Shown: positions 4,629-42,114 of the stretch, one piece after another
Position numbering within the stretch: the first letter of the stretch is position 1
How the letters are laid out: every line of letters begins with the position of its first letter
DNA from: a virus
Length of the DNA stretch: 64,000 bases
Direction: 5' to 3' (one strand)
Virus record (IMG/VR): IMGVR_UViG_3300036853_000417
Coordinates: 18,151 to 82,150 of that record
The notes under the pieces: model-generated
The model's input: the letters and a program-made list of their open reading frames with translations, nothing else
Database searches by the model: none
What the model was told of the DNA's origin: nothing
Made by a program: the position numbers and the translations under genes

Positions 4629-4850
4629 CTATTCACTACTATGCTTACACTGCCCTCTCACTGCATCAATGGCATATCGAAGAGCCTCAACAGTCTCACG
4701 GTTAGTTGGGAAATCATCCTGAAATGAGCGAGGAGTTAGCATTTCTACAAGCCATTGATAGCGCTTTATTATACGTATCACGTCTAACAGCACTCGTATA
4801 GAATGCTCAGCTTCGCTTAGTGGGCGTATATCTTTTGTTTTATCGCTCAT
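4629..4850 (-). CDS. hypothetical protein
   Basis: ORF; likely start MSDKTK after a GAGGAG RBS. Confidence 0.5.
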   Translation of the reverse strand: MSDKTKDIRPLSEAEHSIRVLLDVIRIIKRYQWLVEMLTPRSFQDDFPTNRETVEALRYAIDAVRGQCKHSSE

Positions 4851-4854
4851 TTCT

Positions 4855-5331
4855 TTATTTCTCCTCAACAATATCAATATCACTTCTAACAAAATGTGTA
4901 CTAAAACAACGGAAAATATCCTCTGTACAGAGTCCAAGTGTGTTCCCATACCCTTCTGTGGCTGGCTTACTATCCCTCACCTCGCGCCAGTATTCTCCTG
5001 CCCGACCCTCTAATTGCTCAACCGCAGGACAGAGCATATTGCGTTCATAGTTTGGCTCCATGATTGAACCATAAAGCCACTCCTCAATGTCTTCTGCATT
5101 GCGGTATGAGAGGTAGAGTGCAGCCTGGTAAAAAAGCATCTTGTGGAGCATTTTTTCATCTGCAATTAAGAATTGCCTCAGAAGTGCCAGATCAAATTGC
5201 TTTACTTCCTCATCGTTGCCCGACCTCGTAATGGGTGTGTCGGACACACATATGTCAAGATACAACGTTACCCGCAAACGTCGCCTGAGTAGCTCATTAT
5301 CTTGTTGTGCATCGTTTGCTATACCTATCAT
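4855..5331 (-). CDS. hypothetical protein
   Basis: ORF; likely start MIGIAND after an AAGGAG RBS. Confidence 0.55.
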   Translation of the reverse strand: MIGIANDAQQDNELLRRRLRVTLYLDICVSDTPITRSGNDEEVKQFDLALLRQFLIADEKMLHKMLFYQAALYLSYRNAEDIEEWLYGSIMEPNYERNMLCPAVEQLEGRAGEYWREVRDSKPATEGYGNTLGLCTEDIFRCFSTHFVRSDIDIVEEK

Positions 5332-5521: not shown

Positions 5522-6184
5522 ATGATTAACCTTGTTGCTAAGTCGATAGATATCCTACAGGCTCATCCACGCAATTACCGTATCCATCCTGAGGATGAAA
5601 TTGAGCATCTCATGGAGAGTATTCGTCTACATGGCATCTATCGCAATATTGTCATTGCACAGGATGGAAAGACGATTCTGGCTGGACACGGAGTTGTAGA
5701 AGCTGCTCGTAGACTTGGGATGACACAGGTCCCTGTGTTTCAGACAAACTATCAACCTGATGATCCACATGCTTTAAAACTGCTGGTTGGTGATAATGAG
5801 ATCCAGCACCTTGTTGAGGCTGATGATAGGGCACTCACGGAACTCTTACGTGAACTGAAAGAGATTGATGACCTACTTAGCACTGGTTATGATGAGATGA
5901 TGCTTGCTAATCTCGTCATGGTCAGTCGGCCTGCATCTGAGATTACCGATCTGGATGCAGCCTCACAATGGGTAGGACTACCTGAGCATGATAGAGAAGG
6001 AGAGCGCCGACTTCAAATTATCGTGAACTTTGCCAATGAGGAAGACCGCAAAGCATTCTGTCATCTGCTCGGCCTTGAGTCCAGCAAGATTGCAAATGAA
6101 GGAACAGGAAAGTCTATCTGGTGGCCGAAGCAAGATCGAGATGATGTGAAATCCCTTCGCTTTACTGATGGGAGACAAGGATGA
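5522..6184 (+). CDS. ParB-like nuclease domain protein
   Basis: HPRNYRIH...ILAGHGVVEAARRLG...VGDN. Confidence 0.85.
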   Translation: MINLVAKSIDILQAHPRNYRIHPEDEIEHLMESIRLHGIYRNIVIAQDGKTILAGHGVVEAARRLGMTQVPVFQTNYQPDDPHALKLLVGDNEIQHLVEADDRALTELLRELKEIDDLLSTGYDEMMLANLVMVSRPASEITDLDAASQWVGLPEHDREGERRLQIIVNFANEEDRKAFCHLLGLESSKIANEGTGKSIWWPKQDRDDVKSLRFTDGRQG

Positions 6185-7140
6185 CTCACCGAATACTCCC
6201 AAACTATCCTATCTATATTCCCAGCAAAGGTCGTGCTGATTGCTGCTATACTGCCAAATGTCTTGATGCTGGTGAAGTTCCATTTCATCTCGTTATTGAA
6301 CCACAAGAAGAAGCTCTCTATCGGGTGCAGTTCCCCAGTGCTCATTTTCTAATTCTCCCCTGGAATGGTGATGATCAGGTACGACGTGATTTCTGCCAGC
6401 AACGTCGTATTGAGAATGGGGGCCTCATTGCTGCACGCAACTGGATTAAAGAGCATGCCACAGCAACAGGCAGTGAAAGACATTGGCAGTTAGATGACAA
6501 TATCACAGAGTTCTATCGGCGCTACAAGGGTAAGCGTATCCGATGTGAGTCGGGTCTTGCACTACGTGCCTGTGAAGACTTTACTGACCGTTATGAGAAT
6601 GTTGCGATCTCAGGTCTCAATTATTATATGTTTGTTATGGATGATAAGCAGACATCTCCACTTGTTATTAATTGTCATGTGTATTCTTGCTCCCTGATCC
6701 TGAATGCACTTCCCTTCTGCTGGCGTTTGGCCTACAATGATGATACGGATATATGCCTGCAAGTCCTCTCAACAGGGATATGGTGTACGGTACTCATCAA
6801 TGTCTTCATGTGTAGGAAGTTGCGCACAATGACTGTACAGGGTGGCAATACTGCTGATCTCTATCAAGGTGATGGACGATTGCATATGGCGCGTTCACTT
6901 GAACGGGTATGGCCAGGCATCGTTGAAACAAAGCGTCGTTTTCATCGACCACAACATGTCATAAAAGAGAACTGGAAATGCTTTGATACTCCGCTTCGAT
7001 TGAAACCGGACATTGATCTAACACAACTTCCTCCAACCAATGAATATGGGATGGATCTTTGTCAGATCAAAGATGTAATCAAAAGTCCCCGAATCCAAAG
7101 ATTACATGATGCATGGCAACAGACACATAGATCTGAGTAA
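6181..7140 (+). CDS. TET-associated glycosyltransferase (TAGT/GREB1-like, GT-A fold)
   Basis: IYIPSKGRA, ARNWI, WQLDDNI, YNDDTDICLQ and GGN motifs. Confidence 0.8.
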   Translation: MTHRILPNYPIYIPSKGRADCCYTAKCLDAGEVPFHLVIEPQEEALYRVQFPSAHFLILPWNGDDQVRRDFCQQRRIENGGLIAARNWIKEHATATGSERHWQLDDNITEFYRRYKGKRIRCESGLALRACEDFTDRYENVAISGLNYYMFVMDDKQTSPLVINCHVYSCSLILNALPFCWRLAYNDDTDICLQVLSTGIWCTVLINVFMCRKLRTMTVQGGNTADLYQGDGRLHMARSLERVWPGIVETKRRFHRPQHVIKENWKCFDTPLRLKPDIDLTQLPPTNEYGMDLCQIKDVIKSPRIQRLHDAWQQTHRSE

Positions 7141-7300
7141 GGATTTCTTATTATGAGGGGCAATTTTATCTTTAGTGATGCATGGTCTTTTTCACAAAAA
7201 GTGAGGTTTGCATGGCAAAAATGCCATTGTTGAAGTTGCCCCTTGAATAGTGCTGGTATGCTCTGTATACTTATAGTAGATTACTGGAAAAGAGGAAAAA

Positions 7301-16382: not shown

Positions 16383-16589
16383 ATGTCTTATTCTGCTGTT
16401 GGGCAGTGTACCAGGTGTGGTGCTCCGATCTATGCAGAATATCCCTGGATGGCAGTTACTCCCCCTCCATTTCGTTATTCCTGTCTCTGTTGGGTTTCTG
16501 TGAAAAAAGGGAGACCATTCTACAAAACAACTTCAGGAACAACGGTAGATGAACAAGATACAAAAAACAAGGAACAACAGAAAACATGA
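16383..16589 (+). CDS. small Zn-ribbon protein
   Basis: CTRCG...CLC; AGGAG RBS. Confidence 0.5.
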   Translation: MSYSAVGQCTRCGAPIYAEYPWMAVTPPPFRYSCLCWVSVKKGRPFYKTTSGTTVDEQDTKNKEQQKT

Positions 16590-17023
16590 TGACAGAAAGA
16601 ACAGCAGAGGGTCAGATTATCAACGGAGATGCTTTAATTGTGTTGAAAAATCTACCTACACACTCGGTAGATTCCATTGTTACTGATCCACCTGGTGGGA
16701 TTTTCTTTATGGGCAAAGAATGGGATAGCGATAAGGGTGGGCGAGATCAATGGATCGCATGGTTAGCGTCAATTATGCAAGAGGCTCGCCGTGTGATCAA
16801 ACCTGGGGGTCATGCTTTGGTATGGTCACTTCCTCGTACTGCACATTGGACTGCAATAGCGTTAGAAGATGCAGGATGGGAAATAAGGGATAGTGTGCAT
16901 CACATCTTCGGAAGCGGTATGCCCAAAAGTCATAATATAAGTAAAGCGGTAGAATCTGAGATAGTAAAACAACTGCAACTAAAAGGGATAGTATTTACTA
17001 GTTGGGAGGATGAACATGAATGA
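16586..17023 (+). CDS. N6/N4 DNA methyltransferase, N-terminal half (split gene)
   Basis: GDAL, VTDPPG, RVIKPGG, EDAGWEIRD, GSGMPKSHNISKA. Confidence 0.85.
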   Translation: MMTERTAEGQIINGDALIVLKNLPTHSVDSIVTDPPGGIFFMGKEWDSDKGGRDQWIAWLASIMQEARRVIKPGGHALVWSLPRTAHWTAIALEDAGWEIRDSVHHIFGSGMPKSHNISKAVESEIVKQLQLKGIVFTSWEDEHE

Positions 17024-17783
17024 GTTTTTCAAATCTATCTATGTATTGCGCTTCTTTGCCCCATATAGAGCGATGACAAGATACACACAATGTTATTCCA
17101 TTAGTAATATCAAGAATACGTTCAGGACATTCTCTGACTGGATGTATGTGATGTGCTTGTATGTCTCCATTGCTAGGCTTATTGCACATTTGGCAGGTAT
17201 AATTATCACGTTCATATACAGATTTGCGCCAGTCTTTGTACTCAAATTGACCATGAATAATAGCTCGATATTTAGTAATTCCTCCATTTTTCCAATTAGG
17301 ATGAAGATGTTGACGATATTTTCCTTTAAGGCTGCTAGAAATCTTTTTACGGGTAGTATCAGCAAGCTTGGCCCCGTATCGTGGGGAATTCTCTCCTATA
17401 CGGCTTTTTGCATAATCACTCAATTCTTGTTTACGTTGAGCAGACAAGGGAATACCCTTGTTCCAACCAGCACATTTTTCAGTTTTATCTCGAATTGGAA
17501 TTTCGTATTCATGCAACAATTTACTAATACTACTTTCAGACGAACCCAGTTGACGCCATATAGTATCTATACTCAATTCCTGATTTACATACAGTTCATG
17601 CAATTGTTCTTTACTAGATGCCACAGGACGTTGTGCAAGATGCCTGTCACGAATGGGAATATCATATTTTCTCAACCAATTACTAATAGTTTGGCTAGAA
17701 TTGACTCCTACAAGTGCAGCAATTTCAACTGTGGTCAAATTTTCAGTAACATACAAATTATACAAAGTGTCTTTGTCCAGCAT
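16998..17783 (-). CDS. homing endonuclease (HTH + NUMOD3-like + HNH) inserted in reverse orientation
   Basis: TRKKISSSLKGK, ERDNYTCQMC...AHHI...NGITLCVSCH; own AAAGGAG RBS. Confidence 0.85.
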   Translation of the reverse strand: MLDKDTLYNLYVTENLTTVEIAALVGVNSSQTISNWLRKYDIPIRDRHLAQRPVASSKEQLHELYVNQELSIDTIWRQLGSSESSISKLLHEYEIPIRDKTEKCAGWNKGIPLSAQRKQELSDYAKSRIGENSPRYGAKLADTTRKKISSSLKGKYRQHLHPNWKNGGITKYRAIIHGQFEYKDWRKSVYERDNYTCQMCNKPSNGDIQAHHIHPVRECPERILDITNGITLCVSCHRSIWGKEAQYIDRFEKLIHVHPPN

Positions 17784-17796
17784 GGGAGGCTCCTTT

Positions 17797-18831
17797 ATGC
17801 AGTACCATAACTTTCCTAATTATAACACAACAGAAGAAATTATACAAGTTACTGTATATGGAAGAACGTTAAATCTTATCAGACGTAATGGGAGATTTGT
17901 GAAACCTATTGAACTAAAAGAACTAGAAGGGAATGGGACTGGGATGAAGCCCTCTCATGAAGTATGGTGGCTGGCGCGTGCTCCTCTTTCAGAATCTACT
18001 GTAGCTGCTAATGTCCTAAAACATGGTACTGGTGCACTCAATATTGATGCCAGTCGAGTCTCATATGTGAGTGAGAAAGATGGACAACCTAAAGATTATA
18101 GCAATAGCAAAGGGATAGGAACCTATCAGGAAAGTTGTAAAGAACAGGGTGCCCGCAAATACGCAGATGGTTTTTCTTATCTTAAAAATAACTTTGTTGC
18201 ACAGACTCCTGCCAATGGTCGATGGCCTGCTAATCTTCTGTTTTCTCACACTTTATTTTGTACTGAGGAGCAATGTACAGAAGATTGTCCGATAGTGCTA
18301 CTAGATAAACAGAGCGGGGTGAGGAAAAGCGTAAGAAGCCTAAGAGGCGGTGTGAAGCTCACCGGGACAACGTATAGCCCTCGATTTAAGCAAGAAATCA
18401 GCGAATATGAATGTGGCTACAATGATCAAGGTGGAGCTTCCCGTTTCTTTCAGCAATTTTACTACTGCCCTAAAGCTTCACAATCTGAAAGAGAATCAGG
18501 TTGCGAACATCTTTCTGAGCACAATGGATTTGATAAAAACACCAGTAAGCAGATAGCGCACATCAATCACGAAACAGGGAATACGACCTATTCAGAGTAT
18601 TCCCCAAGTGTGCGTAAAAATAATCATCCAACGGTAAAGCCTGTAAATCTTTTGAAGTATCTTATCAGGATGATTACGCCTCCTGGTGGAACAGTTCTTG
18701 ACATGTTTGCAGGAAGTGGGAGTACTGGGCTGGCAGCAATACAGGATGGATGTACCTTTATTCTCATTGAAAAAGAGATTGAGTATGTAGAGATTGCACG
18801 TGCAAGGATAGCCGCTATCCAGAATGGATGA
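17797..18831 (+). CDS. N6/N4 DNA methyltransferase, C-terminal half (split gene)
   Basis: GTGMKPSHE...LARAPL, GRWPAN, NHPTVKP, DMFAGSGSTG; GGGAGG RBS at 17784-17789. Confidence 0.85.
   Translation: MQYHNFPNYNTTEEIIQVTVYGRTLNLIRRNGRFVKPIELKELEGNGTGMKPSHEVWWLARAPLSESTVAANVLKHGTGALNIDASRVSYVSEKDGQPKDYSNSKGIGTYQESCKEQGARKYADGFSYLKNNFVAQTPANGRWPANLLFSHTLFCTEEQCTEDCPIVLLDKQSGVRKSVRSLRGGVKLTGTTYSPRFKQEISEYECGYNDQGGASRFFQQFYYCPKASQSERESGCEHLSEHNGFDKNTSKQIAHINHETGNTTYSEYSPSVRKNNHPTVKPVNLLKYLIRMITPPGGTVLDMFAGSGSTGLAAIQDGCTFILIEKEIEYVEIARARIAAIQNG
17819..17847 (-). promoter_or_regulatory. sigma70-type promoter for the HNH gene, lying inside the MTase C-half coding start
   Basis: TTGTAT-17-TATAAT with TG extension on the minus strand. 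Confidence 0.55.
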
Positions 18832-29933: not shown

Positions 29934-30314
29934 ATGAAAGAATACGAAGTTATGCCAGATACTATCTGGAACAAGTGTGTTTTTTGTGACGGTTATACGG
30001 TCGCCAATATTGTAGAGAGTGATGGATGGCAGGCAATTGCGGTGTGGGGTAGCCAGGATTGCCATTTCCTGGGAAACTGGCCTTATGTAATCTTCTTTGA
30101 GAAGCAGATAGAGGGAGATAAACCCTTTCTTATTGTGGTCTACTCTGAGGGTAGTATTACCCAATATGTATTCGAGGATGAAGCAGCGAGAAACACCTTT
30201 CTGGACATAATGGCTTTTAATCAATGGAAACATGAGGAGCAGGAATGGGTCAAAGACTACCAATCGGTAGAGGATTTGCCTGCGGCTTTGCGCGGATATC
30301 CTGAGCAAGATTAG
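29934..30314 (+). CDS. hypothetical protein
   Basis: AAGGAG RBS; followed by a terminator. Confidence 0.6.
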   Translation: MKEYEVMPDTIWNKCVFCDGYTVANIVESDGWQAIAVWGSQDCHFLGNWPYVIFFEKQIEGDKPFLIVVYSEGSITQYVFEDEAARNTFLDIMAFNQWKHEEQEWVKDYQSVEDLPAALRGYPEQD

Positions 30315-30319
30315 AAGGG

Positions 30320-30350
30320 AAAGAGGATACTCTAAACCGTATCCTCTTTT
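30320..30350 (+). terminator. intrinsic terminator
   Basis: AAAGAGGATAC...GTATCCTCTTTT. Confidence 0.65.
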
Positions 30351-30588
30351 ATATATTTCTCAAATTCTCTCCATTGATCTCTTGTTTCTTTCTATGTTAT
30401 ACTTATCATGTATAGCACGCCAATACAATGTCTTCGGCAGGTAGTCAGCTAAGACATTCCTCTGGCCGCACAATATTGGTACCTCAATGTGCAGCACGCC
30501 GCTTTTTTTCTTCGGCTCTTAGCAGCTAAGATTCCCCCACAGGTGAGCCTCGGCAACGATGGTTAGTCATTTACGAGGTGTACCTTGA

Positions 30589-31800
30589 ATGGACACATTC
30601 CAAAAAACATATAGTCCACATGATTCACAGTACAAAGCCAATAGAATGCATATCCTGCGTGAGCTGAGCACGCAATCGGATACTGCGCTCAAACAGCAAC
30701 TGGACTACCTGGAAACACAACCTCCTCCAGCTGACGAACAAAATGAAGCGGTGCGCATGTTCCACAATATTCGCACGCTCAGACTTCCACAACGCATTAA
30801 AGGCATACTTGATAGTACATCAGGGACGACCGGAAGTGTCATCATCAGGCAGGACCTTGAACCCATTATTCACCTGCTCTTTGTCAGGAAATTCCCATTA
30901 TGGGAGGCAATACAAAAAGCTCAGTCAAATGGGTTGGTTCATGCGTATGAACAAATGACTGCTCCCGATGCTGGCGCACTTGGCAGTTCACTCATTGCAG
31001 AACTTGGTCCTGCTCAATACGACCATAGTGTGATGGTCCGACAAACGACGCCTATCAGCGTTTTTGCGCAGGGGAGAGGCGTTTCATTTAAAGAGCAGGC
31101 TGCGGTGGAGGCTGGCGGAATGAACTTCAAACCGCTTTCTATTGAGATGAGCGGTGCTGTTACCAGGCTCGCAACTGATATTCAGTTTTACATGTTTCAG
31201 GGAAATTTCGGTAACTCCAGCATAACATCTACCGCACTTGAAGGGGGTAACTATAACGCTCTTGCCTTTGATGGGTTCAGGGGCGTCATGGGGTCCGTTG
31301 GCAATTTTAGTGCCAATAATGCAACACAGGTTGATATTGGGACGCTCAATATCACAGAATCACTCAAGTTTACAGCGGCCAAGATTGCTGATAATGGTGG
31401 AATGCCTGACATGGTTGTGATGGGCATGCTCGCGAAAGATGCGCTCGAAACTGAGAATATGGGCAATCAACGCTGGAATGATAACCTCCCTGAAATCGTT
31501 CCTGGCGTGCGCGTCAACACGGTCAACTGGTCCAATGGTCAACTCAAGCTGTTACCAGTGCCCGGCAACACCATTGGGAAGTATAACCGAACATCAGACA
31601 GTGCGCTGGTTGAGGATCTCTATGTCTTCGACTCATCCAAGATCATTCTCCGCTGGCTTTACTCCGAGACGATGACTGTTCTTGAAATTCCTTCAGGGGT
31701 TGATAGTCAACTGAGTAACAGAATTATCGCCTTTTACATGTATGGCATGGAACAGGCTGCTCCTGTCTTCTCAGGTAAAGCGAGACGGTTAGCAAGTTAA
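30589..31800 (+). CDS. major capsid protein (HK97 fold)
   Basis: 403 aa; IIRQDLEP, MFQGN, FDGF; first gene of the structural operon. Confidence 0.8.
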   Translation: MDTFQKTYSPHDSQYKANRMHILRELSTQSDTALKQQLDYLETQPPPADEQNEAVRMFHNIRTLRLPQRIKGILDSTSGTTGSVIIRQDLEPIIHLLFVRKFPLWEAIQKAQSNGLVHAYEQMTAPDAGALGSSLIAELGPAQYDHSVMVRQTTPISVFAQGRGVSFKEQAAVEAGGMNFKPLSIEMSGAVTRLATDIQFYMFQGNFGNSSITSTALEGGNYNALAFDGFRGVMGSVGNFSANNATQVDIGTLNITESLKFTAAKIADNGGMPDMVVMGMLAKDALETENMGNQRWNDNLPEIVPGVRVNTVNWSNGQLKLLPVPGNTIGKYNRTSDSALVEDLYVFDSSKIILRWLYSETMTVLEIPSGVDSQLSNRIIAFYMYGMEQAAPVFSGKARRLAS

Positions 31801-31814
31801 TAGGTGTAGAATAA

Positions 31815-32228
31815 ATGTCAAAAACTGAACAGCAGACAGCTCAAGAAGAAGCTATGATAAGCAGAAAACAAGAGAAGACAGCAGAACACTATGAGGACAA
31901 TGATCCCGTTACGGTGATCTGGAAGTCATGGGGAACCAATGGTATGCCATCCAACAAAGTAACGTACTTTGACAGGCAAATGTTTGAGGGTGGAGTTGGT
32001 CGGCGCATTCCCTATGGCATAGCTCAAAAATGGCAGAAGCAGGGACATGGAGTGCTCATCTTTGATGTTGATGCGACGGAGGCTGATTTTATCCGAGCAA
32101 CAGGGCATAAGCCGCTGGACGACGATAAACTGACAATGCTCCTCAAGGCAACGCCTCTCGACAAGATTGCAGCACTCCTGGGTCCTGATGCCGTTGAAAA
32201 GATTACTGCCATGCAAAACAAAAAGTGA
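31815..32228 (+). CDS. hypothetical protein (head-associated)
   Basis: position after the major capsid gene. Confidence 0.55.
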   Translation: MSKTEQQTAQEEAMISRKQEKTAEHYEDNDPVTVIWKSWGTNGMPSNKVTYFDRQMFEGGVGRRIPYGIAQKWQKQGHGVLIFDVDATEADFIRATGHKPLDDDKLTMLLKATPLDKIAALLGPDAVEKITAMQNKK

Positions 32229-32270
32229 TGTGGTTTTTCAATCGGGTTGGTGGAGGGTCGGAGAAGAGAT

Positions 32271-32951
32271 ATGGCACGATTTTCACGCGTTATTGGACGC
32301 AATAGAGATATTCCACAATTTGCCTCCTATCAGGGTGCCGCAGCAGCAGGTGGGACAGCAGCAGACTTTGAGCGTCCAATTGTTGCGCTCACTGATCTGA
32401 CACTCAATGCTCCATCTGGGTCAGTAGGAAGTATTGTCAGTAATGCAATGTCAGCGCGAGCATGCATATTGACATTCATGGCTGCAATTACGGGAGATAA
32501 TACCAATAATTGCGCCTTTAGTTTTGTTCAGTATCGCAGTGGCGCAATCCTGGTCAACACGACATCAGCCACAACCATTACTGCCGGAACAAGAACTGTT
32601 ACCCCTACAAGCATGACAAATCTCTATAATGGTCAGCAGCTTATCTTTAGTGGTGGTACAGGTGCTACCGAAACCGTTGTCATTTACAATCTTACCCCAA
32701 CAACCTTTCAAGCAACCTTTGCAAACGGGCATAGCGGAGCCTACGCGATCACATCAGCTCCTTTAGCTTCAACAACCTTCCAAACCGGAGTGAATGCCTC
32801 AGCCATTGTTCCGATTCAGTTTGCCAGCGCTATCAACTACATTAAAGGCGGAGATGTAATCACTATCAAGCGTGTGAGTAATAATGTAACAGGCCTTGCA
32901 ACACCTGCATTTGATGCAAGGATTGACTGGGTTCCTGCAGGTCTTGGTTAG
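32271..32951 (+). CDS. putative structural protein
   Basis: Thr/Ala/Gly-rich beta-type composition in the structural operon. Confidence 0.55.
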   Translation: MARFSRVIGRNRDIPQFASYQGAAAAGGTAADFERPIVALTDLTLNAPSGSVGSIVSNAMSARACILTFMAAITGDNTNNCAFSFVQYRSGAILVNTTSATTITAGTRTVTPTSMTNLYNGQQLIFSGGTGATETVVIYNLTPTTFQATFANGHSGAYAITSAPLASTTFQTGVNASAIVPIQFASAINYIKGGDVITIKRVSNNVTGLATPAFDARIDWVPAGLG

Positions 32952-32961
32952 AGGTATGGAC

Positions 32962-33940
32962 ATGGCTGACTTTACGACGATAAGATCCATGTGGAATAGC
33001 AACACTGATGCAGCTCCTACATGGAATGCTGTTACATTTGGAGGATCATCAGGTCAACAGGAAATCAGGTGGTGTGCTACCAGTGCAGGTTCTGCTACGA
33101 TAGGTTCTGCTGCATGGCCGCAATACGCGAGGCCAGCCAGCCCCGGTGCAGTACCAGAACTCTGGTACTTTACGTCTTCCGATAACTCAGGAGGGGTCAA
33201 AGTCGGAACCTATGATGGGGACAATGGACAGGCCAACGTCGCATGTATCGACTATGACAACCTTGGGACATTTGCCACCGCTCCCACGCTCACTGCATAC
33301 AGTTCCTCTGCACACAATGCACCAGTTGCAGGCACACAACCGGGAGCCGAGGCAGGATCTCCAATTATCAATGGACATGCAACCGATACCAGCTCGACTT
33401 CCTACCTCAAAATTAATCTCTATGGGGATGATCAGACGGGCAATCCAACGGCAGGCGCTGTTGGAAGCATGCCATCAGCTACCACAGGCACGGCAGGTAG
33501 TGTGTCTCCTGGCGCTGCTGCATGGTTAGCTACGTGGCAGTCAGCGCAGGGAGCCGTCCAATTCATCACCCATCGCAGGACACCTGCCGCAACTACAGCA
33601 GGAAAGATCTTTTTTGTACTTATTCTGTTTACGGGGCCGAATATGAGCCTTAGTTTAGCCAGGGCCTTCAAGGAGTAATCCTTGTTGAAAACCTCTCTGG
33701 GAACGGTGAAAGCCCCAATCATTGAATGGGTAACGCCGTGGCAAGCAGGGCAATGAAGCCTGTGCAGCCGTAGAGATCAAGTGAGAGGCTCCATACAATT
33801 GTGTATGGATGATGCCATGATCCGACCCTTGCAGGAATGTAAGGAGGCCAGCAGAAATGACTGACCCCACTCATAAGAGTGAGTAACAAGATAGTGGTAC
33901 ACTAACACCCGTAATCACATTTACCTATAGTTATGTGTAG
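32962..33940 (+). CDS. putative structural protein interrupted by a group I intron: join(32962..33650,33895..33940), 244 aa
   Basis: splicing gives ...GPNMSL-GTLTPVITFTYSYV*; the unspliced frame ends prematurely at 33678. Confidence 0.75.
33651..33894 (+). ncRNA. ORF-less group I intron (244 nt)
   Basis: P1 GCCU|U:AGGGC with U-G at the 5' splice site; P10 GCCA:UGGU; P3 CCTCTC/GAGAGG; P7 GAGATCA/TGATCC; terminal G at 33894. Confidence 0.85.
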
Positions 33941-33951
33941 TAATGTACATT

Positions 33952-35181
33952 CTAATAGTTGATGCCACGACGATCAAAGGGCGTAAGGTCTTCAAGTCTA
34001 CGATTTGACTTTCTGGCATTACATTCACGATGTGTAGGTTTGATATTGTCCTCTGTGTGGGTTCCCTGTGGATCACCTGCACGAGGGACGAGAGGCACAA
34101 TATGATCGAATGTCAAAGTATGGTGAAGCAAAATAGGTTTATCGCACAGGTAACAATGTCTTCCATCGCGTTTAAGGATATGAGTAAAGTCTACCTTATC
34201 TACGATGACTGCCCCCTTTTTACGAGCAAGACGTTGAAGTTGATATCCTTGTGTGCGAAGTCTATTGTTGTGCCTCCATACTCGATGTTTTGCCCTAATC
34301 GAAGCCATATGCAGAGCATCATGACGACGACTATCATTGTATATACGCCTCTCTTCAAGCCGTTCATGATGATATATGCCCACACACTTTTTGCAGATCG
34401 CATAATGTCCATCACGTCGGTTCCTGTCCAAAGAAAACTCACTCAAGAACTTTTCAAGAGAACATTGTGGGCATACCTTGGCTCGTACCTTACGCGGAGG
34501 CGGAATCATCTGTCGCTGTTTGAGGATGCGAGTCTGACGCTTTACAGCATTGCGTGCTCTTCTTCTTGCTCTGTGCTCATCAGTATTGTGGCGAGCACGA
34601 TCATAGGTGCGAAGGCGATCACTGTTAGCGGATCTATAGGCATTATTATATGTCCTTTTCTCGAATTTCTTTTCAGGAGAGGCATGATAGCGCTCACTCT
34701 TACATTGCTTGCAACGACCTGCATAGCCATCCTTTTGAGCAATGTCATGCATAAATGCACTATGAGGTTTTTCTATCAGGCATGTGTTACACACCTTGTG
34801 TCCTTCAAGAGTGGCCTTTGGAAGAACAGGTGTCTTGCGAATACGTCGCAATTGATTGCGCTCTCTGTCCCTTGCATGTTCACAGGTAATACAAGTGGCT
34901 GTAGGCTTGCCATTCCGAAAATGAAAGTCAATATATGGCTTCTCCTGCTTACAAGCATTGCAAAATCGGTAGCCCTCTTTAGTCGATTTCAATTGAGATT
35001 TATTACGTGGGTTATACCGAGGATTCGGCAGCACATAGGGGCGTCTACGTGCTCGATCTCGTTCCCGTGTGCAATCAATACAGTAACTAGAGGGTCTATC
35101 CTTATGTATCTTGAATTGACCAAAAGGTTTTTCAATCTCGCACGATGCGCAAACTTTGAAAGTAGGATACAATGGGTCCAT
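33952..35181 (-). CDS. freestanding HNH homing endonuclease with four CxxC...CxxC repeats
   Basis: repeated CxxCxxEKPxxxF modules; C-terminal CYLC...FDHIVP...NIKPTHRECN. Confidence 0.85.
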   Translation of the reverse strand: MDPLYPTFKVCASCEIEKPFGQFKIHKDRPSSYCIDCTRERDRARRRPYVLPNPRYNPRNKSQLKSTKEGYRFCNACKQEKPYIDFHFRNGKPTATCITCEHARDRERNQLRRIRKTPVLPKATLEGHKVCNTCLIEKPHSAFMHDIAQKDGYAGRCKQCKSERYHASPEKKFEKRTYNNAYRSANSDRLRTYDRARHNTDEHRARRRARNAVKRQTRILKQRQMIPPPRKVRAKVCPQCSLEKFLSEFSLDRNRRDGHYAICKKCVGIYHHERLEERRIYNDSRRHDALHMASIRAKHRVWRHNNRLRTQGYQLQRLARKKGAVIVDKVDFTHILKRDGRHCYLCDKPILLHHTLTFDHIVPLVPRAGDPQGTHTEDNIKPTHRECNARKSNRRLEDLTPFDRRGINY

Positions 35182-35314
35182 AGCTATGAGTCCTCAAATT
35201 CTAGCTTAGGTACAAAGAGTGTCGTAAGCACTCTTTGTACCTCAAAAAATCCACCCTCATTATACCACAAAACCGCTCCACAAGCCAGTTTATGTCTTTT
35301 TTGCGTATCAAAAA

Positions 35315-35388
35315 TAGCCCCAATTGGAGTTGAACCAATGCCTCCCATTTATAAGATAGGTGCACTTAACCACATGTGCTTTGGGGCT
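35315..35388 (-). tRNA. tRNA-Ile (UAU)
   Basis: AGCCCCA/TGGGGCT acceptor, GCAC/GTGC D stem, CCTAT-CTTATAA-ATGGG anticodon arm, ATTGG-TTCAACT-CCAAT T arm; atypical A8. Confidence 0.8.
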
Positions 35389-35522
35389 ATGCGTTCACTA
35401 TTGCTTCCTGCCAAAAAAACCGTGTCGTCGGTAGTAAGAAATCGCCAATCGAACACGTGTCACAAAATCAGCAAAAAATGTTCTCATGCATTCAATCTCC
35501 TTTCAGAAAGGAGTATAGCACA

Positions 35523-36035
35523 ATGGGCATAGCTACATCTCTCTATGCCGTTGGAGATGCGATAGATCCCTCCCTCTCCTACTGGAGTGTCCTTTTGACG
35601 ACTGGCAAAACATGGTCAGAACGTCAACTTGTACCAACGTGGACAAAGGGCCAGAGGGGATTGCGCAAGCTTGATTGGGGAGAGGATTTAGTAAGCACCG
35701 GGGATATCCACCGTATAAAAGAAATCACACTCCATTGTCCTGATGGAGGAACGGCAGTCCTGGAAGTCCCTGAGCGGAGTACCGCGTTTCAATTTAAGAC
35801 ACGCAGCCTCAATATGCTTGGCGCAAGTGGCAATGACCTGGAATTTCAGGTTATTGGTCGTGTGGTTGACAAGACAACAGGACGATGTGAGTGCTTTATC
35901 TGGGATTACCGACCACTCCCAGGAGAGAAAAATCTCATAGCGTATAAATCGAGTATATACAACTTTGGTGCATGGAGAAACACTATCACACCTATTGGTG
36001 CACTAGGTATTGAAGTACAGGGTTTCCGTTTATGA
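35523..36035 (+). CDS. hypothetical protein
   Basis: ATG after AAGGAG. Confidence 0.6.
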   Translation: MGIATSLYAVGDAIDPSLSYWSVLLTTGKTWSERQLVPTWTKGQRGLRKLDWGEDLVSTGDIHRIKEITLHCPDGGTAVLEVPERSTAFQFKTRSLNMLGASGNDLEFQVIGRVVDKTTGRCECFIWDYRPLPGEKNLIAYKSSIYNFGAWRNTITPIGALGIEVQGFRL

Positions 36036-36174
36036 GATAAGAAATGATTCATGTCATGGCATTTGGCTAAACACCTGCTGGCTCGGTTTTGAGCGACACA
36101 CAAACAGCAGTAACGACATCAAAATTTATCCATGTATTCCTCATTTTTGAGGATAGTATAACACAGGAGGAGCA

Positions 36175-36591
36175 ATGTCAGGAAAGTCGGCATATCTAGA
36201 GGATAAATTGCTAAACTGGCTCAAGGGAACGGCGTTTGGAACTGCACCAACTACCGTTTATGTCGCTCTTCTGACAACGAACCCAGCCTCAGATGACGGT
36301 ACGGGTGCTGTTGAAGTGAGCGGCGGGTCCTATGCACGTGTAGCTATCACCACATCGTCAGGTTGGTCAGCTATTAGTGGATCAGGCACAAGTCCGCACC
36401 AAATCAGCAATAGCGGCGTGGTGACGTTTGTTACGCCCACGGCCTCATGGGGGGATATCATAGGCATAGCTATCTATGATGCTAGTACAGCAGGCAACTT
36501 ACTCTATTGGAATAGTATAACATTGCAAACAATAAACAGCGGAGTTATTGCTTCGTTTGCGATTGGTGCTTTAGTCGTAACCGACAATTGA
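36175..36591 (+). CDS. phage tail/structural protein
   Basis: YLEDKLLN...YVALLT...EVSGGSYAR...G(D)IIGIAIYDASTAGNLL, a common phage structural family. Confidence 0.7.
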   Translation: MSGKSAYLEDKLLNWLKGTAFGTAPTTVYVALLTTNPASDDGTGAVEVSGGSYARVAITTSSGWSAISGSGTSPHQISNSGVVTFVTPTASWGDIIGIAIYDASTAGNLLYWNSITLQTINSGVIASFAIGALVVTDN

Positions 36592-36626
36592 CGGTTAATT
36601 AGTGCATTAACTGTAAAGGAGATATC

Positions 36627-37517
36627 ATGCCTTTAACACCAGGAATAGCTGACGTACTGCAACCAATGGCAGCACCTACCGTTGTACAGAATGCAACAGG
36701 CGCGGGTGCGGCTATTACATATAACATTGTCGCTGTAAATGGAGCAGGCGCGGACGGCGCTCCTAGCCCGTCGTTTGTGACAGGTGCCAATAACGCAGCG
36801 ACTGCCAACAATACGATAAGTTGGGTAGCCATTCCAGGGGCATTTGCATACCGTGTGCTCAAGAATGGAGCACTCTTAGTAACAGTAGGACCTGGGGTCA
36901 CTTCATACACAGACAGCGCAGGCGCGGCGGGCGCTGCGTACACGGCGTCCGTTGTCAACCCATCGGCTCCAGCGCTTGTTGCCAATTCTCTATTGGATGG
37001 TGGCAAACCAACATATTCAGCGGCGAAACAAGGTCTGGTACCAGTTGCTACACCTACCGATGTGTGGACGATTATCGGTAGTGCCTCAAAGATTGTTCGC
37101 GTATTGCGTATTGAGATTGTCGTCACATCTACCGCTGCAACAGGCGCGGCTATTGATGTTTTGTTACTCAGGAGAAGTACAGCAGACACGGGTGGGACCT
37201 CATCGACTACAGCATTTATTCCTCATGATAGCCTTGATCCGGCTGCAACCGCTGTCTTCACGACCTACACAGCGAATCCAACACTTGGGTCAATTATTGG
37301 TGTTGCACTTAGAGCGACAAAGATCATGCCTACTCTTGCCACAAGTACAGCTACAGACTTTCCACTGCCTGATAGGGCTTCCTGGGACTTTGGTAGCCGT
37401 CCAGGTAAGGGAATTGTGCTTAGAGGAGCTGCTGATACACTGGCAATTAACTTGAACTCAGTGTCATTAGCGGCGGGTGCTTCTATGAATATCGCATGCG
37501 AAATTACAGAGGAATAG
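36627..37517 (+). CDS. putative structural protein
   Basis: A/T/G-rich, FN3-like N-terminus. Confidence 0.55.
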   Translation: MPLTPGIADVLQPMAAPTVVQNATGAGAAITYNIVAVNGAGADGAPSPSFVTGANNAATANNTISWVAIPGAFAYRVLKNGALLVTVGPGVTSYTDSAGAAGAAYTASVVNPSAPALVANSLLDGGKPTYSAAKQGLVPVATPTDVWTIIGSASKIVRVLRIEIVVTSTAATGAAIDVLLLRRSTADTGGTSSTTAFIPHDSLDPAATAVFTTYTANPTLGSIIGVALRATKIMPTLATSTATDFPLPDRASWDFGSRPGKGIVLRGAADTLAINLNSVSLAAGASMNIACEITEE

Positions 37518-37520
37518 ACC

Positions 37521-38678
37521 ATGGGATTTAGCAATCCACAACCAAATGACTCTGCTACTGTTCCAATAAGTTCGGAGTACTCACCACAAAATAATACCTT
37601 CCCAGCCATGCAAGGTGCTGACGGGGCCTATGTCGATGCGTATGGGAATGCATCAACCGCTCCCGTCACGTCCTTTATACAGCCTAGAGTTGTTCAGAGA
37701 GGCATTGCGCAAACGGGCGCGGGAGCGAAAAGTCTTTCTTATACGTTTCCTAATCCTGTCATGGGCGGGAACTCTATTGTCGTTTGCTTAGGTGTGGGCG
37801 ATATGGAGGACTCGGTTACTAGCTTTGTAGTGGCTGACTCGGCAGGGAACATCTATACCAAGGTGACATCACAACCGCAAGGAAGCACGCTTGAGGCCGC
37901 TATCTATCTCACAACTGGCATTAAATCAGGACTTGGTTCAAATCCAGATCTGCTACCTGTGACAAGTCCAGTTCTCAATACGGTCACGATTAAGATCACA
38001 GGTCCTACTGCTGTTCCTACTGGCATTTCGATGAAGGTGTATGAAATCTGGGGAACTATTGCCTCATTGGATGCGCTTGATCAAGTAGATATGGGTAGTG
38101 GAGCTAGTGGATTGATAGCATCAACTTCAGTGGTTACACCGCAAGTCCCCAACACGATAGCATTTACAGCTCTTGCCGTAGGGAGAATAACAACTATCAC
38201 ACCAATGGTTGGATATTCAACAAATGACGGCACACTATTCCCTTGGGGTGGGAACTTAGGTGCTTTTGATAGTCAGTACCGTGCGCTCTCAACCATTGCA
38301 ACGGTTACACCACAAGCAAACTTGTCACTTTCTAGCGCGTGGGCTATGTGTAGCGCAACGTTTAGGACAATTGTGTTACCAGTAGAGGGAACATTTAATT
38401 ATGCTCCCGCTACAAATGCTCCAATGACAACAGTAAATGCGTCATTATCTCCTGTACAGTTACTTGCAGCAAACGGAGTGCGTAAAGGCGTTAGTGTGTT
38501 TGGAGGTTCAACAGCTATATTGTTTGTGGCATATGGTGTTATTACAGCAAAAACAGCATACGTAACGCAAGTGCCACCCGGGGCTCTTTGGGAAATGCCG
38601 TTGCCAATTTATCCAGGTCCAATTTATGGATGGTGGTCTGCTGTCAATGGCAGCGCGAACATAACCGAACTTTCCTAG
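37521..38678 (+). CDS. putative structural protein
   Basis: beta-rich composition in the structural operon. Confidence 0.55.
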   Translation: MGFSNPQPNDSATVPISSEYSPQNNTFPAMQGADGAYVDAYGNASTAPVTSFIQPRVVQRGIAQTGAGAKSLSYTFPNPVMGGNSIVVCLGVGDMEDSVTSFVVADSAGNIYTKVTSQPQGSTLEAAIYLTTGIKSGLGSNPDLLPVTSPVLNTVTIKITGPTAVPTGISMKVYEIWGTIASLDALDQVDMGSGASGLIASTSVVTPQVPNTIAFTALAVGRITTITPMVGYSTNDGTLFPWGGNLGAFDSQYRALSTIATVTPQANLSLSSAWAMCSATFRTIVLPVEGTFNYAPATNAPMTTVNASLSPVQLLAANGVRKGVSVFGGSTAILFVAYGVITAKTAYVTQVPPGALWEMPLPIYPGPIYGWWSAVNGSANITELS

Positions 38679-38689
38679 GAGATATCATA

Positions 38690-39973
38690 ATGCCTTTATA
38701 TCCATCAAATCAATTCATACCTAATGTAGTTGTGCCTGCTACTCCACCTCCTGACATTGATACGCCGTTGCCTATTTCAGGTCCATATTACTATTTGCCG
38801 ACTGACTGGGACGCAGCATGGAAAGCTGCGAAATCTGCTGTTGGAAGCCAACGTATAAGCGTGGTCGGGATTGGAGATAGCGATACAGCCGGGGAAGGGG
38901 CGTCGGATATCGTGACGACGGCCTGGTGGCCCAGACTTCGCTCAGCTCTCCTCTCGGCCAATGGCAACCGACTTGGAGGAGATCACTTTGGAGTTCTCTA
39001 TACTCCTGCTGTGAACCTTCCAAAATCCTCGACGCCGCTCACAATGGGTGGCACAATCAATACTGATTGGACAGCGTACTATAACTCATTTAATAACGTT
39101 ATTTTTAACAATAATGCACAAACGCCACTGTGGACCTGTGCGCCAGCCTATAATGTCGTCGGTTTCGATATCCTCTATCAGGATTTCCAGGCAGGAAGCT
39201 GGACCTACAACGTGGACGGAGGAAGCAATACGACCGTTACTGTCACCAATAACGGCACATATGCAACTGCACAGGTCAAAAAGATAAGCATTACAGGTCT
39301 CACATCGGGCCTGCATACTCTTCATATCAATTCGTCTTCCACTACAAATTCCTGCACTATTCTTGGCATTACCGCGTATGCCAGCACGAGCGGCATCTGT
39401 TTTGCAAATAACGGGTGGCAAGGATTGGGGCTAGTAAACGGGGATGTGTATAACAATGCGCTCCTCGACACATCGCTTACGCCAGTTGATCGATTGGCAA
39501 TGTATCAGGGGTACACAGGCATCCCATCAGCGCCAACAGCATTATCGGGTTTGGGCTTTCCTGCTCAGCCGGATCTCGCTATCGTTGCGCTTGGGATCAA
39601 TGATGCTATTGCCTCAGTCAGTCGTGCAGATTTTCGCAATGGGTTAGAGCGACTCATCTGGTCGTTGCGATACGGCAAAAACGATGCTTGCAGCATTATC
39701 ATTGTCGCTATGTACTGCCCAGATGGGACGCTGACAAACTCCTCAACTACCGTTGCAAATATGGATTACACCAATGCGGCATATGTCGCTTATCGTGATA
39801 TCAAAGCTGCCATGCTTGAATGCGCACAGGCAAATAACTGTGCATTTGTAGATGTGCATAGCGCGTTTGGCAGGCAGCCGATTGCAAATGGGTGGGTTAC
39901 CAGCGCAAGCAATCTGCATCCAACAGATGCAGGACATTTGAAGATTGCTACTCTGTTGGGTGCGCTTGTGTAG
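38690..39973 (+). CDS. SGNH/GDSL hydrolase domain virion protein
   Basis: GDS (block I), GIND (block III), NLHP (block V). Confidence 0.8.
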   Translation: MPLYPSNQFIPNVVVPATPPPDIDTPLPISGPYYYLPTDWDAAWKAAKSAVGSQRISVVGIGDSDTAGEGASDIVTTAWWPRLRSALLSANGNRLGGDHFGVLYTPAVNLPKSSTPLTMGGTINTDWTAYYNSFNNVIFNNNAQTPLWTCAPAYNVVGFDILYQDFQAGSWTYNVDGGSNTTVTVTNNGTYATAQVKKISITGLTSGLHTLHINSSSTTNSCTILGITAYASTSGICFANNGWQGLGLVNGDVYNNALLDTSLTPVDRLAMYQGYTGIPSAPTALSGLGFPAQPDLAIVALGINDAIASVSRADFRNGLERLIWSLRYGKNDACSIIIVAMYCPDGTLTNSSTTVANMDYTNAAYVAYRDIKAAMLECAQANNCAFVDVHSAFGRQPIANGWVTSASNLHPTDAGHLKIATLLGALV

Positions 39974-39984
39974 AAGAGGTGTAA

Positions 39985-42114
39985 ATGGCAGTATTATATA
40001 AGCCTAGAGCATTTGGCGGTGCGGTTCCATATGAATCTCAGGCAGTGTCTCTTGCAGGCACGCTTGCAGGCACAGGTACGCTTGTACCTGTATTGTCGGC
40101 TTCTACTGCTCTCTCAGCAGAATTCGATGGAATTGGCACTTTAACAGGAACGCTCTCAGCTAATCAATTAAAAGATATTGCTACACGTTTACGATTAGCT
40201 CTTTTTAAAGATATTGCCTCTCGATTACGTTTGGTGTCAGCTATTCAATTAAAAGATATTGCTACACGTCTAAGATTAATATCCACATTGCAATTCAAGG
40301 ATATTATAACACGTCTAAGACTGATATCTGCATTACAGAGCAAGGACATTCCTTCACGTCTGAGATTGATATCTTCTAACCAATTAAAAGATATTGTTTC
40401 TCGATTCCGTTTGGCTATTTTCAAAGATACTACTGCTCGATTACGTTTAATGTCTGCTAATCAATTAAAAGATATTGTCACCCGTTTCTCTCTCATAGGG
40501 AGTGTCCAGATACAGGGTATTATGACCCGGTTGAGATTGATATCAGCCTCACAACTCAAGGATGTAGCTATTCGTCTGCGTTTGATGTCAGCAAATCAGA
40601 TCAAAGACATCATATCCAGATTGCGCCTGATGTCTTCCTCGCAATTGAAGGATGTTATTTCTAGATTGCGTCTGAGAAGTGCAAATCAGATCAAGGACCT
40701 CATCACACGTCTGCGTTTAGCATTCTTTAAAGACATTGTTTCCAGACTTCGTTTAATGAGTGCCTCGCAACTAAAGAATGTAGCTCTTCGATTGCACCTG
40801 ATGTCTGCTCCTCAGGTAAAGGATGCCGTAACACGTTTAAGACTGCGATCAATTAATCAATTCAAAGATATAGACACACGTTTGCGCCTGGCACTCTTTA
40901 AAGATATTTCTGCCAGATTGCGCGTAATGAGCTTGAGTCAGCTCAAAGATATCACTTCCAGACTTCGCTTAATATCTGCCAGCCAGCTGAAAGACATTGT
41001 TTCCAGATTGCGCTTGATATCAGGGAGTCAGCGCAAGGATGTGTCATCACGTCTACGACTGGCACTCTTTAAAGACATTGTTGCACGTTTGCGCCTGATG
41101 TCTGCCAGTCAGATCAAAGATGTCGCTCTTCGGCTACGTCTGATATCTGCCAGCCAGCTCAAAGACATTATTTCCAGATTGCGCTTAAAATCAGCAAATC
41201 AGCTCAAGGATATCAATACACGTCTACGATTAGCGCTCTTTAAAGATATTGCGGCCAGACTGCGCTTGATGAGTGCCAAACAGTTTAAGGATGTTTCAAC
41301 ACGATTTATCCAGGTTGTGCCAGGGCAACAAATCAAGGATCTTATCACACGTATGCGACTCATGAGTGCTAATCAACGCAAGGACATTCCTGCTCGCATG
41401 TGTTTGGCACTCTTTAAAGACATTGTTTCCAGATTGCACTTGATATCAGCTAGTCAACTCAAGGATGTAGAAACGCGTCTGAGAATAATGTCCACTCCTC
41501 AGATAAAGGATGCTCTAACCAGGATTCGATTGCGATCTGCTAATCAGTTCAATGACATCGACACACGTCTACGGTTAGCACTCTTTAAAGACATCGCTTC
41601 CAGGCTTCGTTTGATGAGTGCTGAACAGATCAAGGATACCACGACTCGCCTGAGAATGAGGAGTGCTAACCAGCTTGAGGACATCGTTTCAAGGCTCAGT
41701 CTAATGTCTGCTAGCCAGCTCAAGGATGTCACTTCCAGGCTTCACTTAATGTCTGCCAGTCAGTTCAAGGATGTCGTATCCAGACTGCGCCTGATGTCAG
41801 CTATCCAGTTCAGGGATATGTCCATTCGTTTGCGCCTGATGTCAGCTTTACAACAAAATGACCTCGATACCCGTTTGCAATTAATGTCAGCAAGACAATT
41901 ATGTGATATCAATGTACGTCTTCTCCTAACATATGCTATTCAATTAAAAGATATTACATCAAGACTGATTCTTATTTATGATGCGGATCAATATCACGAT
42001 ATTCCTTGTCGCTTTATTTTAACGACAATAGTGGATGGGACTTTCTATGTACGTAGTGGTAACATTACGTCATATGTACGTAGTGGTGATATTAACATGT
42101 ATGTAAGGAGCTAA
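39985..42114 (+). CDS. tandem-repeat basic protein (about 40 copies of QLKDIxxRLRLMSA)
   Basis: repeat visible in the translation. Confidence 0.75.
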   Translation: MAVLYKPRAFGGAVPYESQAVSLAGTLAGTGTLVPVLSASTALSAEFDGIGTLTGTLSANQLKDIATRLRLALFKDIASRLRLVSAIQLKDIATRLRLISTLQFKDIITRLRLISALQSKDIPSRLRLISSNQLKDIVSRFRLAIFKDTTARLRLMSANQLKDIVTRFSLIGSVQIQGIMTRLRLISASQLKDVAIRLRLMSANQIKDIISRLRLMSSSQLKDVISRLRLRSANQIKDLITRLRLAFFKDIVSRLRLMSASQLKNVALRLHLMSAPQVKDAVTRLRLRSINQFKDIDTRLRLALFKDISARLRVMSLSQLKDITSRLRLISASQLKDIVSRLRLISGSQRKDVSSRLRLALFKDIVARLRLMSASQIKDVALRLRLISASQLKDIISRLRLKSANQLKDINTRLRLALFKDIAARLRLMSAKQFKDVSTRFIQVVPGQQIKDLITRMRLMSANQRKDIPARMCLALFKDIVSRLHLISASQLKDVETRLRIMSTPQIKDALTRIRLRSANQFNDIDTRLRLALFKDIASRLRLMSAEQIKDTTTRLRMRSANQLEDIVSRLSLMSASQLKDVTSRLHLMSASQFKDVVSRLRLMSAIQFRDMSIRLRLMSALQQNDLDTRLQLMSARQLCDINVRLLLTYAIQLKDITSRLILIYDADQYHDIPCRFILTTIVDGTFYVRSGNITSYVRSGDINMYVRS

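Follow-up and report, generated by a model that had tools for sequence, protein, structure and literature searches.

In a 64,000-nucleotide (nt) stretch of a phage genome (hereafter the window; bases 18151-82150 of the 82,150-bp IMG/VR virus record IMGVR_UViG_3300036853_000417, which carries inverted terminal repeats), an HNH homing-type endonuclease gene lies backwards, on the minus strand, between two virion genes, and one frame of the plus strand crosses this gene, its promoter and an adjoining transfer RNA (tRNA) module almost free of stop codons until it meets the start of the next virion gene. We call this plus-strand open reading frame (ORF) the bridge ORF. It is open because the HNH gene has lost the codons TTA, CTA and TCA, which are read as stops in the antisense frame (forbidden codons hereafter), and this openness is neither due to chance nor a shadow of codon usage. 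Comparisons with related loci give good support to selection for an antisense frame that is open and terminates at the start codon downstream. In the explanation that we consider probable, an HNH cassette family of soil phages, together with other backward cargo, has evolved 'ambigrammatic' DNA, in which purifying selection would act purely on antisense translatability so that operon ribosomes reach the next gene, and in which the start of the filler ORF would derive from the antisense of the catalytic motif.

A map of frames and stops bore out what an earlier reading of the letters (the sequence-only reading) had described, namely a plus-strand frame in codon register with the inverted HNH gene that has a single stop (TGA 34006), begins with an ATG (33943) two bases after the stop of the upstream gene and is open from 34030 to 35532 over the HNH gene, its promoter and the reverse tRNA, ending over ATG 35523. 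The distance between ATG 33943 and the upstream gene proved right once a second exon had placed the true stop of that gene at TAG 33938-33940. Between 33929 and 35529 the TGA at 34006, which is the antisense of the only TCA of the HNH gene (Ser392), is the sole stop in the bridge frame; the next, TAG 35530-35532, falls 8 nt beyond ATG 35523 of the next virion gene. Over the HNH gene the other two plus-strand frames hold 27 and 19 stops, and within 35182..35522 they hold 7 and 5. The bridge ORF differs in frame from both neighbouring genes, has its own stop and extends 351 nt beyond the HNH start codon, through the HNH Shine-Dalgarno (SD) sequence, a hairpin, the promoter and the reverse tRNA-Ile(UAU); the probability of meeting no stop over the 116 codons of this promoter and tRNA extension is 0.0008-0.0046. 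Although the tRNA module is an addition that separates the HNH promoter from the next gene, it contains no stop in the bridge frame. Antisense open runs of the other window genes never exceed 157 codons, a second HNH gene excepted.

Forbidden codons make up 3.45% of all codons in 71 window ORFs vs 0.24% in the HNH gene (1 of 409), where none is found among the 359 codons N-terminal of the catalytic His. The codon-depletion check suggested in the sequence-only reading was run with two baselines. For the 25 Leu and 16 Ser residues of the protein, synonymous usage in the window predicts 9.0 forbidden codons against the one seen (P=5e-4), while the gene's own usage of A at third positions (four-fold families plus Lys, Glu and Gln) predicts 13.8 (P=1.5e-5). 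A general avoidance of A-ending or TA-containing codons was rejected, the other NNA codons of the gene numbering 95 vs 100 expected, with normal use of GTA and ATA. An alternative genetic code was discarded as well, all three stops being missing from one frame only, as was early-gene or tRNA-limited codon usage, on the evidence of codon usage across the window ORFs and of the contrast between the two sides of the catalytic His.

The open frame is a trait of a whole cassette family, beyond this phage. Related loci (L numbers) were drawn from IMG/VR and JGI metagenomes, their genes being called by ORF length. Twelve non-redundant family genes (28-58% identity) contain 14 forbidden codons vs about 106 expected, and at synonymous positions they have almost reached saturation (identical residues share their codon at a rate of 0.43 vs 0.40 expected); the purge is therefore actively maintained. 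In the eleven bridge-competent family genes none of 278 Leu/Ser codons N-terminal of the catalytic His is forbidden, vs 10 of 60 on its C-terminal side (Fisher P=1.6e-8). Because both halves share one mRNA, explanations by tRNA supply, expression level or sense-strand codon usage are excluded. Frequent antisense stops in homologues had been named beforehand as counter-evidence; instead, the frame is open from the catalytic His to the start of the next gene in 10 of the 11 other family members. At family loci with enough flanking sequence, the HNH gene runs opposite to its neighbours.

Since the residual forbidden codons all lie on the C-terminal side of the His, the start of the bridge can be located at this residue, and its conserved portion would begin at the RTG opposite the catalytic His codon rather than at the stop of the upstream gene. 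The candidate here is ATG 34102, opposite the CAT of His360 and preceded 6 nt upstream by GAGAGG. The antisense of a His codon (CAY) is ATG or GTG, and that of the conserved Pro-Leu codons yields GAGAGG-like motifs 5-7 nt upstream, which are clear in 7 of the 12 family genes. Residues D359, H360, N379 and H384 are invariant in an alignment of the HNH protein with 27 metagenome homologues (alignment A1).

The depletion depends on orientation. Among 80 loci of broader HNH relatives, the 47 HNH genes co-oriented with both neighbours carry 550 forbidden codons vs 573 expected and none has an open antisense frame; eight additional co-oriented HNH genes carry 56 vs 62.7 expected. Reverse-oriented HNH genes of this broad sample are depleted at L066, L050, L069, L055 and L061. 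The bridge at L050 terminates in GGGAGGcgaTGATG. At L069 the antisense frame of the reverse HNH gene (L069:2378-3250) stays open for another 1068 nt into the next ORF, and it may be that this HNH gene, instead of being bridged, sits in frame within a host gene.

The bridge stop falls -8 to +17 nt from an SD-led ATG at 11 of the 13 loci, and stop and start overlap as ATGA in L030 and as ATGGGnnTRA in the window, L012, L015 and L016. The junction between the two virion genes itself is, judging from related phages, an insertion hotspot for backward genes (one MerR-like, three small others). It is occupied sporadically: the site is vacant in L032 and holds an HNH gene in L034, while other relatives have different cargo (Table 1). 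Four non-HNH cargo genes from this junction, when pooled, contain a single forbidden codon vs 12.3 expected, and for each of them the codon log-likelihood ratio points to the reverse gene as the coding strand. At the empty site of L032, where nothing separates them, the two virion genes are tightly coupled.

The second HNH gene of the window (case 1) had been described in the sequence-only reading as the same pattern at 17 kb in an unrelated HNH, of which the present gene would be an independent repeat. The two share only the HNH motif, and both are depleted (Table 1). The case 1 gene splits a DNA methyltransferase (window 16586-18831) into two ORFs in different frames, which correspond to phrog_67 positions 123-229 and 266-346. 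Its SD-led bridge ORF has GGGAGG and ATG 17010 or 17016, overlapping the stop of the upstream methylase fragment (17021-17023), and ends with TAA 17808-17810, 11 nt past the SD-led ATG 17797 of the C-terminal methylase fragment.

These features can be accommodated in one mechanism. A selfish HNH cassette with its own promoter would have been inserted backwards between two tightly coupled virion genes. Purifying selection clears TTA, CTA and TCA out of the stretch of the HNH gene that reaches from the start codon to the catalytic His, and it also keeps the bridge frame stop-free over the HNH 5' untranslated region, the promoter and, in this phage, the added tRNA module. The bridge ORF, probably beginning at ATG 34102 or at 34030 and ending 8 nt into the next virion gene, would complete a relay from the stop of the upstream gene through a short ORF and the bridge ORF to the next start. 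The operon transcript would thereby be kept translated over 1.6 kb of backward DNA, so that neither Rho nor premature termination would meet a long stretch of RNA bare of ribosomes, and ribosomes would be handed over at the next start, restoring the coupling of the empty site. The target of selection is probably the passage of ribosomes over the cassette, with anti-polarity or translational coupling as the benefit; the bridge would be translated, and expression of the downstream gene may depend on it. As regards the anti-polarity idea of the sequence-only reading, the part that stands is selection on an open frame ending at the downstream start, while Rho-type relief specifically is one candidate beside coupling, hairpin suppression and RNA protection.

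Several observations weigh against this explanation. The relay is broken once in the window by TGA 34006, neither ATG 33943 nor ATG 34030 has an SD motif, and the downstream gene has a strong SD of its own, so that coupling is not strictly required for its initiation. Within the family, the bridge of L011 is broken and its gene holds 4 forbidden codons vs 6.8 expected, a near-expected count that also means that the HNH family has no intrinsic codon bias. Three of the eight or so reverse-oriented HNH genes (L042, L060 and L067) are closed, and the device is thus not universal. Orientation classes are approximate, neighbour orientation having been assigned from ORF length only. In L002 and L020 the bridge ends where no start codon is obvious.

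Other reasons for an open frame were weighed against the same data. A chance 'shadow ORF' arising from codon bias or composition is scarcely credible: such ORFs in frame -1 are common where TTA, CTA and TCA are rare, whereas the window has a GC content of about 45% with these codons at the frequency given above, and the internal and external controls reject chance at P<1e-7. Almost as hard to sustain, and in our view very improbable, is a true antisense overlapping gene whose 500 codons specify a functional protein. The ORF is long, the openness of its frame is conserved, and translated antisense ORFs are reported to exist in bacteria (PMC8850804). Against this, antisense amino-acid identity among homologues is 0.22 vs 0.208 predicted when the sense protein is given random synonymous codons, bridge peptides have no family match in Pfam, and the C-terminal 117 bridge residues are the antisense of promoter and tRNA. 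Bridges over unrelated cargo encode unrelated peptides, and the codon log-likelihood ratio prefers the minus (HNH) strand by +40.7 bits, on which ground the plus-strand ORF was rejected as a real gene. The bridge peptide appears to be without meaning of its own, with no conservation beyond what the HNH sequence forces.

It is also conceivable, if quite improbable, that the open frame benefits the selfish element and not the phage, for instance if translation of the antisense RNA tunes when or how strongly HNH is expressed; the trait accompanies the cassette family, and the HNH catalytic motif supplies the putative start of the bridge, but unrelated cargo at the same site has the same feature, and a benefit to HNH would not predict a frame open past the cassette, through the tRNA module, to the ATG of a host gene. 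A closer rival, though still unlikely, is selection on ribosome transit for another reason at the RNA level, such as preventing the operon RNA from pairing with the HNH mRNA, to which it is complementary throughout (double-stranded RNA, RNase III), protecting RNA from decay, or melting the cassette hairpin. The conserved, covarying hairpin and the predicted strong convergent promoter of the cassette both fit such a role, and RNA protection by ribosomes is the favoured idea for narnaviruses (PMC8316113). In L013, L015, L016, L022 and L011 the hairpin and the T-run that follows it on the operon strand, both within the bridge ORF, would form an intrinsic-terminator look-alike, which a closely following ribosome could suppress. 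Against this rival stand the window and L012, which keep the bridge despite an A-rich run, instead of a T-run, after the hairpin, and non-HNH cargo that lacks this hairpin and is also bridged; coupling or anti-polarity explains better than these RNA-level reasons why the bridge ends exactly at the next start codon.

Stop-free antisense reading of this kind appears so far to have been described only for some RNA viruses. The ambigrammatic narnaviruses carry a reverse ORF over the gene for the RNA-dependent RNA polymerase (PMC8316113, PMC7010960, PMC8155312). As here, a stop-free reverse frame in codon register covers a whole gene through avoidance of CUA, UUA and UCA and is conserved in diverged relatives, and the reverse peptide is seemingly unimportant, the act of translation being thought to matter. 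Narnaviruses differ in being RNA viruses of eukaryotes with both RNA strands as genome forms, whereas the present record is an 82-kb double-stranded DNA phage with terminase, portal and capsid genes, and so no RNA-virus genome. Unlike in narnaviruses, the open frame here is part of a mobile HNH cassette that an operon carries in reverse; it covers the gene only from the catalytic His onward, continues over the non-coding DNA of the cassette and stops at the start codon of the next gene.

The 'hidden HNH' of ShiLan, a homing HNH insertion in actinophage DNA methylases (PMC11855218), likewise overlaps another frame that is kept stop-free, so that in ShiLan the host gene is not truncated. There, however, the HNH gene shares the strand of the methylase in another frame and is read through as part of the methylase protein, whereas here it is antisense, and the open frame forms an ORF of its own that lies between two genes without being fused to either. 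Termination-reinitiation at overlapping stop and start codons is known from translational coupling (PMC6728339, PMC12548453); coupled gene pairs resemble the present loci in the spacing of the bridge stop from an SD-led ATG and differ in that the upstream partner here is a filler ORF over an antisense gene instead of a protein gene. Free-standing phage homing endonuclease genes include the seg and mob genes of T4 and I-HmuI-like HNH genes (reviewed in PMC2988022). Shared with them is an HNH gene with its own promoter that lies between conserved genes and is missing in some relatives; in the literature on them we found no paper on reverse orientation with a selected antisense ORF. An intron and a neighbouring endonuclease are said to cooperate in 'collaborative homing', reportedly described by Bonocora and Shub and by Zeng et al., both in 2009. 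Such pairs recall the ORF-less intron-like element that adjoins the endonuclease gene here, although, unlike in collaborative homing, element and HNH gene also occur apart in relatives. In a full-text literature search no paper was found that describes antisense ORFs kept free of stops across homing-endonuclease cassettes of phages.

If the explanation is true, these cassettes would be the first bacterial or DNA-phage counterpart of the narnavirus ambigrams, and would represent a new means by which mobile elements cancel the burden that they place on a host operon. They would indicate that a reading frame of a DNA phage can be under selection solely for its translatability and not its product, and the long-debated purpose of ambigrammatic coding would become testable in a bacterial system. 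They would also make it understandable that tightly coupled late operons tolerate homing endonuclease cassettes and other cargo in reverse orientation without polar damage. For annotation, very long hydrophobic ORFs antisense to HNH genes should be taken neither for protein genes nor for noise, and the loss of TTA, CTA and TCA on one side of the catalytic His together with an ORF ending at the next ATG offers a signature with which such cassettes may be sought.

Table 1. Coordinates of the features in the window and of the corresponding junction in related loci (L numbers; positions within each locus).
Feature	Position	Strand	Remarks
HNH homing-type endonuclease gene	33952..35181	-	409 amino acids; Pfam PF01844 E=1.9e-7; phrog_1035 and other HNH PHROGs
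Bridge ORF	34030..35532	+	500 codons from first ATG; exact codon register with minus-strand HNH gene
Mini-ORF in bridge frame	33943..34008	+	21 codons; starts 2 nt after upstream stop; ended by TGA 34006
HNH SD GAGGAC	35195-35190	-	read off the sequence
HNH 5' untranslated region hairpin	35241-35211	-	kept in 9 cassettes; 7 of 8 pairs compensatory
Predicted HNH promoter	35259..35287	-	-35 TGGCTT 35287-35282, 17-nt spacer, TG-extended -10 TATAAT 35264-35259
tRNA module	35297..35495	-	tRNA-Ile(UAU) at 35314..35389 (ARAGORN and Rfam, 56 bits)
Downstream virion gene	35507..36035	+	SD AAAGGAG 35507-35513, ATG 35523; homologues 67-82% identity in L024-L029
Upstream virion gene, exon 1	32956..33650	+	start ATG 32956 or 32962; ends ..GPNMSL
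Intron-like structured RNA	33651..33894	+	244 nt; U before 5' junction, last base G
Upstream virion gene, exon 2	33895..33940	+	(L)GTLTPVITFTYSYV and stop; matches C-termini of six intron-less relatives; stop TAG 33938-33940
Case 1 HNH gene	16998..17783	-	related to 33952..35181 gene by HNH motif only; 0 forbidden codons vs 9.6-16.6 expected
Capsid-like gene	30589..31800		virion module around the finding
Head protein gene	36175..36591		virion module
Tail protein gene	38588..39973		virion module
L032 junction	5732-5741		empty site; stop to ATG 8 nt; stop inside SD
L030 cargo	5769-6209	reverse	146-amino-acid gene, no assigned function; bridge ends in ATGA
L031 cargo	5753-6025	reverse	90-amino-acid gene, no assigned function; bridge end 3 nt before ATG
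L033 cargo	6070-6603	reverse	MerR-like gene; bridge end 3 nt before ATG
L028, L026 and L029 cargo	4677-4967 (L028)	reverse	genes of ~90 amino acids, no assigned function; bridge end 3 nt (L028, L026) or 14 nt (L029) before ATG
L034 cargo		reverse	homologous HNH gene; bridge end immediately before ATG

The HNH protein combines a C-terminal HNH domain with four CxxC zinc-ribbon repeats. The predicted promoter of its cassette would be a strong, sigma70-type promoter convergent with the operon, and a promoter block TTGCTT-N17-TGGTATAAT is conserved among family cassettes. About 40-100 nt upstream of the HNH start, the cassettes of L013, L015, L016, L022 and L011 show on the operon strand the hairpin followed by TTTTTATT-like T-runs. 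No tRNA was found at this junction in the 8 related loci scanned, homology to L030 picks up again at 35496, just beyond the tRNA module, and no clear promoter was identified for the module itself. The HNH family (33952-35181) has no member in a set of one genome for each of 185,579 prokaryote species, and all of its relatives come from metagenomes or viral contigs; the cassette therefore appears to be confined to (probably lytic) phages.

The only sequencing run found to contain the window is a soil metagenome, which may be the source sample of this soil phage. A megablast of window 30000..40000 and a tblastn of the HNH protein, both against a phage collection, gave no match, and single-protein scans of viral contigs with either HNH protein of the window were likewise without a match.

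Homologues of the upstream virion gene in L026 and L028-L034 align to it from 32962. In intron-less relatives its protein ends with ..LFTGPNMSLG(T/L)(I/L)TPVITFTYS(Y/F)V and a stop, whereas the window ORF diverges after GPNMSL; excision of 33651..33894 restores the conserved C-terminus, the tail of which differs synonymously between L033 and the window. The interval 33679..33951, considered as an untranslated gap that would weaken the bridge idea, was rejected as such, exon 2 lying within it. The 244-nt element folds with a minimum free energy z=-3.0 and has copies at L033:5706-5950, L037:1454-1710 and on the minus strand of L035 (about 6860-7150). Rfam detected no intron or other RNA family for it over 33000..36200, and the group I covariance model RF00028 did not match a 286-nt stretch even at E<=10. 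It is probably a compact, ORF-less self-splicing intron of unproven class, 17 of 44 predicted pairs being compensatory across the four copies. The element is found with and without a neighbouring HNH gene, L033 and L037 having the intron only and L034 the HNH gene only.

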